A DNA stretch of 45,201 bases. It comes from Escherichia phage PC2. Positions 40,704 to 41,985 of the stretch are shown one piece after another (the stretch's first letter is position 1; each line of letters starts with the position of its first letter). The notes beneath the pieces were generated by a model. The model had not been told where the DNA came from, searched no databases, and was given only the letters and a program-made list of their open reading frames with translations. Location: the sequence record NC_073088; one strand, given 5' to 3'. The translations under genes and the position numbers were made by a program.

Positions 40704-41033
40704 TTACTTAGAAGTTTTATTATTGCGTACCCAGGAGCGCACTGTGCTCTGATTAATTCCGGTCAACTCGGCAATCATTGCCCAGGATTTTCCCTCGGCG
40801 CGCAAACGGATAACCTGTTTTTTGTATTCTTCCATTTCTTCATTGTGCTTTTGCAGCTTGCTGGCTGCCGTACCGTTGAGCAATTCCAGCCTGGCGCGTA
40901 ATTCTTTTTCTACACTGCGCAGGCGCTCGACCTCAAATAGCACCGCCCCCACGGCATCGGTATAAGCCCATGACCGGCTTGTTTCACTGCTAACAGTCTT
41001 CGTTAACATTTCGATTGCGTCGTTTACATTCAT
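40704..41033 (-). CDS. Transcriptional regulator with C-terminal helix-turn-helix
   Basis: 109 aa; coiled-coil N-terminus; C-terminal HTH (GKSWAMIAELTGINQSTVRSWV); RBS GAGGG; first gene after promoter 41065-41093. Confidence 0.55.
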   Translation of the reverse strand: MNVNDAIEMLTKTVSSETSRSWAYTDAVGAVLFEVERLRSVEKELRARLELLNGTAASKLQKHNEEMEEYKKQVIRLRAEGKSWAMIAELTGINQSTVRSWVRNNKTSK

Positions 41034-41093: not shown

Positions 41094-41212
41094 ATCCTTT
41101 GGATATTGAAACGGGCGCGCACGCGTGTAATAATAATAATTCCCGTCTCATTGTCTCTTATTGGTTAGCGCCGTCGCATTTTGCTTCGGCGCTTTTTTTT
41201 TAAAATTAGTTG

Positions 41213-41241
41213 TTGACTCCCTTCTGCAACCAATCTAATAT
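41213..41241 (+). promoter_or_regulatory. Sigma70-type promoter (TTGACT-N17-TAATAT) with upstream T/A-rich tract
   Basis: Hexamers read directly; T9 tract and AAAATTAG at 41194-41210; drives the plus arm. Confidence 0.6.
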
Positions 41242-41247
41242 TCACCT

Positions 41248-41436
41248 CGTCGACAGGATGCAGGACGCAAACTGGAGAGGGGCAACGCAGGGGCCGGATC
41301 GAAGTGTCAGGATTCCCAACCGTGATTATATAACCCGGTCCACTACCCGAAGGGAGAACGCGCAACCGGGCACTATGTTAAGGCCACCGACGAAGTTAAT
41401 GGTCGACACCTAAACTTAACCAATCGGAGATATACC
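41248..41436 (+). other. Long (about 190 nt) GC-rich 5' leader before the first plus-arm gene
   Basis: No RBS-supported ORF; two GTCGAC palindromes near its ends (41251-41256 and 41409-41414); could be a structured regulatory RNA. Confidence 0.35.
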
Positions 41437-41949
41437 ATGTTTGAACAAATCGTAAACCTGATTACTCGCGGCGTAGTAGCACTGGAAACCATCGCTAAGC
41501 ATTATGAAACCGTCGGCGCTGCCGTTGGTAAACAGGAAGACAAGAAGCCGTCTAAGGCTAAAAAAGAAGTTGTCGAAGATGACGACGCCGAAGACGAAGC
41601 ACCGGCGAAAACCAAAAAAGCACCGGCGAAAGGTAAGGCCAAAAAAGAAGTCGTAGAGGATGACGACGATGAAGAAGCCGAAGACGAAAAACCGGCGAAG
41701 GGTAAAAAAGCACCGGCGAAAGGCAAAGGTAAGAAAGATGCCGACCCGCTGGCAGAGATGCGCGACGAGATCAAACAGTATGCCGCGATTATCGCTGGCG
41801 GTGATGATGACGATGCGAACGACGAATTTGACGACCTGCTGGAATCGTTCGAGATCAAATCAATCGCCAAGCTGGAAGATGACGACGTGGAAGATTTCCA
41901 CAAAGATCTGAAAGAAATCGTCGAAACCTATTTCGAACTGGAAGATTAA
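41437..41949 (+). CDS. Acidic protein with alternating Lys-rich and Asp/Glu-rich repeats
   Basis: 170 aa; repeats KKEVVEDDD(A/D)E...APAKGK; first gene after a strong promoter; followed by a terminator. Confidence 0.55.
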   Translation: MFEQIVNLITRGVVALETIAKHYETVGAAVGKQEDKKPSKAKKEVVEDDDAEDEAPAKTKKAPAKGKAKKEVVEDDDDEEAEDEKPAKGKKAPAKGKGKKDADPLAEMRDEIKQYAAIIAGGDDDDANDEFDDLLESFEIKSIAKLEDDDVEDFHKDLKEIVETYFELED

Positions 41950-41955
41950 TATTAT

Positions 41956-41985
41956 CCGGCCCGCTAATCTGCGGGCCTCTTTTTA
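41956..41985 (+). terminator. Intrinsic terminator after the acidic-protein gene
   Basis: GGCCCGC-TAATCT-GCGGGCC followed by TCTTTTT. Confidence 0.75.

Follow-up and report, generated by a model that had tools for sequence, protein, structure and literature searches.

The leader that precedes the first plus-arm gene of Escherichia phage PC2 belongs to an undescribed family of structured RNAs. Horizontal transfer has spread this family across several genera of virulent siphophages that infect enterobacteria, and the feature goes beyond a gene-specific leader. As judged from the comparison of related sequences, positions 41249-41407 of the window (the whole stretch of 45,201 nucleotides analysed here, record NC_073088) encode an RNA domain of ~160 nt that is self-contained and comprises seven helices (P1 to P7) and two multi-helix junctions. 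An earlier note on this DNA had proposed that the leader folds into a large structure, and this structural guess was correct. The signal emerged only from the comparison of related phages, a single sequence giving nothing significant.

RNAs that are this large and have both invariant junctions and strongly covarying helices are usually ribozymes, ligand sensors or protein-binding scaffolds and, to our knowledge, new RNAs of such kind are rare in well-studied E. coli phages. The carriers are easy to grow and to engineer (relatives of HK578, members of the BASEL collection and T1-like Warwickviruses). Function is directly testable, since tractable phages, natural deletion variants that can serve as controls and E. 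coli genetics are all at hand.

The leader locus of phage PC2

The window is the complete or near-complete genome of a Dhillonvirus (HK578-like). The 500 bases around the leader matched 191 phage records with 90-97% identity, mostly Escherichia phages of Dhillonvirus. The leader sits within an intergenic region of 403 nt, flanked on one side by a minus-strand HTH gene (109 aa, 40704-41033) adjoining the helicase-primase gene, and on the other by plus-arm gene 1 (170 aa, 41437-41949, plus strand, ATG at 41437). Genes for an exonuclease and a gp2.5-like annealing protein follow 3' of gene 1, and this plus arm, which is involved in replication and recombination, wraps across the window ends to ~8400. 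The product of gene 1 carries KAPAKGK-type Lys/Ala/Pro repeats alternating with D/E runs; its only match was phrog_3127, to which no function is assigned, and no support was found for the GenBank names of its homologue ('nuclease inhibitor gamma', 'prohead core protein').

The sigma70-type promoter assigned to positions 41213-41241 (plus strand) by the earlier note was recovered by a consensus scan (-35 TTGACT at 41213-41218, 17-nt spacer, -10 TAATAT at 41236-41241, 9 of 12 consensus positions), and the GenBank record of HK578 annotates a promoter at the homologous place. Transcription is predicted from the sequence to start at ~41248, leaving about 189 nt up to the ATG at 41437. The claim that this stretch lacks a credible ORF agreed with the ORF list, where the only ORFs over the leader begin upstream of the -10 hexamer or are antisense. 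Two GTCGAC copies do flank the leader, at 41249-41254 and 41402-41407, i.e. 2 and 7 nt away from where the note had placed them. Its description of the leader as GC-rich did not hold, with 54.5% GC against 54.6% for the whole window; the remainder of the intergenic region is AT-rich (42% GC).

Examined on its own, the PC2 sequence was unremarkable. GTCGAC occurred at chance level in the window (12 observed versus 11 expected), and the minimum free energy of the leader was no better than that of shuffled sequences on either strand (z = +1.1 and +1.2). The minimum free energy fold (-49.1 kcal/mol) moreover differs from the comparative model (-36.4). Thermodynamics alone are therefore uninformative here.

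Secondary structure of the element

The structure model was made by hand and then checked against every sequence. The plus strand is the folding strand, because invariant G.U pairs turn into A.C when the opposite strand is read, and all features below are given on it. Covariance model R1 matched the whole domain P1-P7 (41249-41407, ~159 nt) at 41244-41413 (159.9 bits, E ~1e-44), the single match in the window. The domain is closed by P1, in which GUCGAC at 41249-41254 pairs with GUCGAC at 41402-41407, the 3' strand being followed by ACCU. This is the pairing suggested by the earlier note, and it is borne out by complementary replacements in other phages.

P2 is a hairpin (41255-41273; pairs 41255-56/41272-73 and 41259-61/41267-69) with an apical loop AGGAC at 41262-41266. 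The loop reads AGGAY in all variants, and the stem differs, as in L079 (AGCUAUA[AGGA]UAUAGCU) and tunus (GGCAA[GGA]UUGCU). The following junction J2/3 (GGAGA, 41274-41278, part of GGAGAGGRG) is made of columns that are invariant in alignments A3 and A5. In P3, GGGGC (41279-41283) pairs with GCCACC (41383-41388, A41386 bulged). This helix was 100% paired, with a middle pair that is A-U in 22 sequences and G-C in 20, and it encloses both the long hairpin P4 and a second arm composed of P5, P6 and P7.

P4 (41285-41323) successively comprises ACG/CGU, GGGGCC/GG..UCCC and GAU[CGAAGU]GUC; it was 100% paired and contains the invariant GGAUUCCCAACCGUGA. Compensated changes were found in KA2-1 (GUU/AAC), MQ-4 (GAU/AUC), KMI8 (AAU/GUU) and L079 (C-G to U-A). 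P5 (41326-41381; 41326-32 with 41374-81) encloses P6 and P7 and reads UUAUAUA/UAUGUUAA in PC2, GGCCAG/CUGAGCU in tunus and GGCCGA/UCGAACC in the sortkaff type; only 75% of its cells were paired in alignment A7, in which it is partly misaligned. P6 (41334-41370; CCCGGU at 41334-39 with ACCGGG at 41365-70) was 100% paired, and four of its pairs each occur in three or four pair types. Within Dhillonvirus alone it occurs as CCCGG/CCGGG, CCAGG/CCUGG or CCUGG/CCAGG. Hairpin P7 (41343-41356, CU-CCC[GAA]GGG-AG) mostly has a GNRA loop in relatives, on stems CCC/GGG, GCC/GGC, CUC/GAG or CCG/CGG. The columns of AGAACGC, which spans the end of P7 and J7/6 (41355-41361), are invariant, and GACGAAG in J3/1 (41389-41395) is nearly so. 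The element of ~160 nt thus holds long invariant stretches (GGAGAGGRGYRACGCAGGGGC, GGAUUCCCAACCGUGA, AGAACGC and AGGCYAYCGACGAAG), separated by segments that vary yet remain complementary. An A/C-rich, unstructured linker and the RBS (GGAG, 41426-41429) occupy positions 41408-41436, between P1 and gene 1.

Covariation evidence

Model R1, built from 38 distinct sequences, scored 47 loci at 141-192 bits. In the model-based alignment, core helices P3-P7 were 95.9% paired versus 83.3 +/- 0.6% with shuffled partners. Both sides had changed in 15 of the 31 pairs, a number reached by none of 500 shuffles, and pairing was at most 50% when partners were slid by 1-3 columns. The covariation analysis across related phages proposed by the earlier note thus showed covarying helices on the one hand and invariant junctions and loops on the other; most of the ~68 invariant positions lie in the latter.

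The sequences split in two large clades (Dhillon versus non-Dhillon), so that many two-state columns correlate from phylogeny alone. Independent support was therefore counted only for helices with at least three distinct versions, namely P1, P2, P5, P6, P7 and P4c, together with one change in P4b (C-G to U-A, in L079). P1 was found in every type, with at least seven distinct complementary sequences: besides GUCGAC, the replacements were GACGGGC/GCCCGUC, GACGGGUG/CACCUGUC, GGGCGGCG/CGCCGCCC, GGGAGGCG/CGCCACCC, AGGCAG/CUGCCU and GUCGACAG/CUGCCGAC. Versions of P6 were CCCGG, CCAGG, CCUGG, CUAUC, CAUGAU, CGCAC, AUUGG, GCUGG and AUAAC, and those of P4c GAU/GUC, GAU/AUC, GUU/AAC and AAU/GUU. Column covariation yielded one extra P6 pair and no other tertiary pair or pseudoknot, because the division into two clades dominated the signal. 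When applied to raw alignments, MAFFT and RNAalifold mis-register P1, P2, P5 and P6 because linker lengths differ; the model alignment corrects P6 but not P1 or P2, which were checked sequence by sequence.

Promoter and 5' end

Each of the 37 distinct upstream contexts, at least eight unrelated promoters included, has a -10-like hexamer whose end lies 6-10 nt upstream of P1. P1 would therefore begin within a few nucleotides of the RNA 5' end. A terminator often lies 5' of the element's promoter.

Other features were observed in the upstream regions. In PC2, a terminator-like hairpin (41168-41201, plus strand; GCGCCG, 13-nt loop, CGGCGC, nine T) stands upstream of the leader promoter, and UCCCCG/CGGGGA takes its place in Ioannina, a compensated change. 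This hairpin is itself preceded by a sequence matching 10 of 12 promoter positions (41106-41134, plus strand), and the two could delimit an ORF-less plus-strand transcript of ~60 nt. Element-bearing promoters of Drexlerviridae and Murrayvirus share a motif, AGCAC(G/T)WWTTGYTAAA, ~20-22 nt upstream of the -10 hexamer (L002:2425-2470, L003, L026, L029, L079). Since it is too far away for a sigma70 -35 element, it may be a candidate binding site for a phage factor.

Distribution, transfer and natural deletion variants

The conservation of the leader on which the earlier note had made its reading depend was observed. By blastn, the segment was found in Dhillonviruses and in unannotated DNA of the unrelated phages tunus, swan01, Motto, KMI8, BUCT618, sortkaff, IME279 and KA2-1. 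The loci compared were those of tunus, swan01, Motto, KMI8, BUCT618, sortkaff and KA2-1, as well as Arya, Lumpael, MQ-4 and PT1, which were obtained from a search with the sortkaff element. In all of them the segment occupies a gene gap of 200-260 nt on the strand of the surrounding genes. The Dhillon-type element was present in ~144 records, and the Dhillonvirus upstream region in 153 phage records. Another 26 records belonged to other genera (Warwickvirus and other Drexlerviridae, Sortsnevirus, Jilinvirus, Murrayvirus and unclassified phages). The element always occurred as a single copy and on the gene strand. Among 132 Dhillonvirus records it was 95-99% identical, compared with mostly 90-95% for the adjoining promoter region, a difference that we count as support for selection.

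The family appears narrow, being confined to virulent siphophages of Enterobacteriaceae. No copy was found in 5,426 E. coli genomes or 72,556 plasmids; the element is thus not a host, prophage or plasmid element. A pattern search of GTDB genomes and JGI metagenomes returned phage contigs only, apart from two chance matches (L032 and L033), which R1 rejected as family members. Relaxed pattern scans of IMG/VR added two new variants only (L079 and L088); another ~40 IMG/VR matches, to AGAACGC..GGCYAYCGACGARG, proved to lie in a coding sequence from a gut phage unrelated to the carriers, and R1 rejected these as well.

Some host labels are doubtful. Contig L031 (QFQS01000013.1, 42.7 kb), filed as a Cereibacter sphaeroides MAG, is a mis-binned sortkaff-like phage, and phages A144, NJ01, Motto and SO-1, labelled as phages of Campylobacter, Acinetobacter, Pseudomonas and Sodalis, carry the same enterobacterial-phage element.

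The interior of the element was missing in ~9 of the 153 Dhillonvirus records (Envy, Ioannina and others), ~135 nt being absent in some. In Envy it is replaced by 13 nt, and Ioannina is left with GUCG-AAA-CGAC; both retain the promoter and the first gene, and Envy also the terminator that follows this gene. Some Warwickviruses are also without the interior. One of them, tonijn, whose flanks are 94% identical to those of tunus, displays a mini-hairpin GGGCG...CGCCC, which looks from its sequence like an element with a deleted interior, and the first small gene is absent. Since such interior-less phages are viable isolates, the function of the element is dispensable.

Downstream genes, linkers and terminators

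The first downstream gene was unrelated in at least 14 contexts, and a shared downstream gene or module was rejected on this ground. In the BUCT618 type, near-identical elements are followed by genes of 87, 55, 99 or 117 aa. Primase or helicase genes often adjoin the element (Arya, PT1, MQ-4, KA2-1, PC2). An A/C-rich linker of 20-60 nt, then an RBS and an ORF always came after it; linkers differ between phage groups, and no terminator lay directly 3' of the element in any locus compared. The suggestion that the leader carries a regulatory RNA structure therefore stood only in part: the conserved multi-helix fold is there, and 'regulatory' is unsupported as there is no conserved expression platform. 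The absence of a platform, the unrelated genes and the natural deletions together indicate a self-contained RNA module and not a gene-tuned leader.

In PC2, gene 1 is directly followed by a strong intrinsic terminator (41958-41984, plus strand; GGCCCGC-loop-GCGGGCC and UCUUUUU), 14 nt before the next ORF (41998). This gap leaves no room for a promoter, and the genes behind the terminator thus depend on read-through. Envy, which lacks the element, displays the same arrangement of terminator and gene. Further terminator-like sites occur in the plus arm at 2792, 5538 and 6058; none was found within ~2 kb downstream of the element in tunus or sortkaff.

Several minor observations concern the same region. 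Genes are replaced particularly often directly 3' of the element (L004, L015, L035, L041, L002, L100), and tunus and tonijn differ here by the element interior and one 60-aa gene. In 11 of 28 distinct contexts, ACC(A/U) comes directly after the P1 3' strand (41408-41411 in PC2), and in several more it lies within 1-2 nt of that strand; it weakly recalls the NCCA that follows the tRNA acceptor stem and is not universal. Gene callers either leave the stretch blank or place spurious 'hypothetical protein' ORFs there. Several GenBank records accordingly display hypothetical protein CDSs over the element, such as a minus-strand CDS of 68 aa in Salmonella phage PT1, which are probably spurious calls on non-coding RNA.

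Comparison with known RNAs

The search of RNA family models put forward by the earlier note gave no relevant match. With Rfam 15 (4227 models, E up to 10, including lax-filter scans of short stretches), nothing was found over the element core, and the sole overlap was a 9.6-bit S15-leader match on the 3' tail and RBS. ARAGORN detected no tRNA or tmRNA in the window; a tRNA-like identity was rejected for this reason and because ACC follows P1 in just 11 of the 28 contexts. No description of the element was found in the literature searched, which included the core sequence as a text string. A large phage and virome screen yielded thousands of unnamed candidate structured RNAs (PMC10690425). The text of that paper mentions none of the element-bearing phage groups; the element may be among the unnamed candidates, as what is reported there is of the same kind (intergenic, covarying phage RNAs without assigned function).

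Among characterized RNAs, the put sites of phage HK022 offered a close parallel to the reading favoured below. HK022 has two of them, putL and putR; the former is located just downstream of PL and requires no protein factors (PMC9378689). The ~70-nt put RNA forms a V shape from two stem-loops, I and II, the first of which contains a triplex (PMC9378689). Like put, the element is a phage RNA transcribed in enterobacterial hosts from an early promoter of host RNA polymerase, it lies upstream of terminators in a long early operon (with P1 6-10 nt after the -10 hexamer and, in PC2, the terminator at 41958), and its action would not depend on which genes follow. Unlike put, it measures ~160 nt and has seven helices closed by P1. 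It is also single-copy and naturally dispensable, whereas HK022 growth depends on put, and its carriers are virulent siphophages instead of lambdoid phages. Homology to put was rejected, as a search of the complete HK022 genome (L051) with R1 at E up to 1 found nothing.

The eps-associated RNA (EAR) of Bacillus is a cis-acting antitermination RNA of more than 100 nt, which constitutes an Rfam family and lies inside an operon. The element resembles it as a structured RNA of more than 100 nt in an operon, EAR promoting read-through of distant terminators. EAR is, however, chromosomal, occurs in Bacillales and sits between genes and not at the transcription start, and the element has no Rfam match. 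The CI RNA of P4 and the c4 RNA of P1 and P7 (Rfam C4) are small RNAs processed from the leaders of phage early operons. If the element were processed, it would share with them the early-operon leader, an origin by processing without its own terminator and a tRNA-like closing stem. Those are, in contrast, immunity RNAs of ~70-80 nt from temperate elements with antisense targets in the same operon, and no C4 match was obtained on the element. Riboswitch aptamers share with the element the 5' UTR location, the multi-helix fold closed by P1, the invariant junctions and the covarying stems, but the element has no expression platform, no coherent downstream genes and no match to a known class.

Possible functions

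We tentatively propose that the family represents a new class of complex-folded phage RNA whose invariant core would serve to bind a host machine or signal that is conserved. It would be either a second, structurally unrelated, protein-free processive antiterminator acting on RNA polymerase, or a decoy or aptamer neutralising a host factor, a defence protein or an immune messenger, in each case spread horizontally as a promoter-proximal cassette among virulent coliphages. The best explanation at present, and still a rather speculative one, would be a cis-acting RNA that modifies host RNA polymerase at the promoter, as put does. A cis action via a host component is what the strict start position, the absence of a following terminator and the invariant unpaired nucleotides, found in phages with no nearby proteins in common, led us to infer; a put-like action would account for all three. 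A host partner is preferred to a phage one because these nucleotides are invariant across phages without other nucleotide similarity.

According to this scheme, the domain would form the very 5' end of the transcript that runs from the 41213-41241 promoter into the plus arm, and would fold on leaving host RNA polymerase. GGAGAGG, the AGGAY loop, CGWAGU, GGAUUCCCAACCGUGA, AGAACGC and GACGAAG would then bind a component that is conserved across enterobacterial hosts, the likeliest partner being the transcribing RNA polymerase itself. The resulting complex would resist pausing and termination, both intrinsic (e.g. at 41958-41984) and Rho-dependent. This would amount to the logic of HK022 put, reached with an unrelated and larger fold. 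P1 would also bury the 5' end and should protect the mRNA, a simpler role that would persist in the mini-hairpin deletion variants. If the element acts on RNA polymerase, it would be only the second protein-independent phage antiterminator RNA, and it would explain how virulent siphophages without a polymerase of their own transcribe through mosaic early operons.

The presence of terminators to be read through (41958, 2792, 5538 and 6058) was counted in favour of this put-like action. Several observations were counted against it. Interior-less phages keep the promoter, first gene and terminator and stay viable; there is one copy per genome despite several early promoters; downstream terminators are inconsistent, with none in ~2 kb in tunus and sortkaff; the element has no similarity to put; and the joining of both ends by P1 as well as ACC(A/U) are more typical of processed stand-alone RNAs or aptamers.

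The last point leads to the main rival, which we consider somewhat unlikely: a processed, trans-acting accessory RNA, i.e. a decoy or sponge released from the 5' UTR of an early operon with strong expression. The A/C-rich linker would be cleaved, and the 5' end trimmed where there is a short leader, to free a compact and stable RNA, which would accumulate and bind a host or host-defence macromolecule. Such a role would add RNA to the list of phage counter-measures, which is now almost entirely protein. It agrees with the P1 helix, which brings the two ends together, a feature also of tRNA, 6S and Y RNA, and is followed by ACC(A/U) in 11 of 28 contexts, with an element that is present once per genome, is frequently lost and passes from genus to genus as an accessory gene does, and with its position at a hot spot of small hypervariable early genes; the invariant loops would imply a specific partner. 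The P2 loop (CAGGAUG/AAGGAU) and GGAGAGG 10 nt downstream presumably resemble CsrA sites, which was counted for this possibility. As for GGA motifs at large, the element offers one universal P2 loop and the single-stranded GGAGAGG, while the CAGGAU of P4 is paired and lost in L079. A multi-site CsrA sponge is thus unlikely, since a compensated change in L079 destroys the second CAGGAU. More generally, a processed RNA would not need to lie directly at the promoter, as the element does in 37 of 37 contexts, and the element never has its own terminator.

An unlikely third explanation is a stabiliser or insulator of the early mRNA. P1, at 0-4 nt from the 5' end, would block 5'-end-dependent decay, and the folded domain would uncouple expression from the identity of the gene that recombination places after it. 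Provided that transcription starts ~7 nt after the -10 hexamer, as inferred, a stem would begin within a few nucleotides of the 5' end, as in ompA-type stabilisation. The constant distance between -10 hexamer and P1, the interchangeable downstream genes and the 5' mini-hairpin derived from the P1 arms, which is kept in deletion variants of two genera (Ioannina, tonijn, Envy), all point in this direction. These same variants show, however, that a simple hairpin suffices, and ~68 invariant positions and five further conserved helices are left unexplained.

A riboswitch-like sensor would be an aptamer that recognises a metabolite, ion or signalling nucleotide of the host and sets operon expression by way of Rho access or RNA stability. 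Aptamers typically have such an architecture (P1 as closing helix, stems that covary, invariant junctions, GNRA loop, 5' UTR), and the linker after P1 is C/A-rich and G-poor. We nevertheless regard this as quite improbable, since there is no conserved expression platform (neither a terminator nor a conserved anti-SD in the linkers), the first downstream genes are functionally incoherent (at least 14 unrelated ones) and no Rfam riboswitch matched at E up to 10.

Another reading is a new class of self-cleaving ribozyme that trims the 5' UTR, in keeping with the conserved multi-junction core; glmS and VS ribozymes are comparable in size and ribozymes are common in phages. It is very improbable, as the element differs from known self-cleaving classes in being single-copy and fixed at the promoter, gave no match to a ribozyme model of Rfam and has no inferable cleavage site.

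Finally, a protein-coding region or a chance structure without functional RNA, to which the 67-aa plus-strand ORF (41210-41413) and 66-aa minus-strand ORF (41165-41365) of the mechanical list and the shuffle-like folding energy of the single sequence might point, is refuted by the comparative data: the plus-strand ORF begins upstream of the -10 hexamer, 1- and 2-nt loop indels among close relatives (such as the 1-nt difference between P7 loops GAA and GAAA or GAAC) break both frames and thereby exclude coding, helix substitutions are compensatory, and the element is conserved across genera with unrelated flanks.
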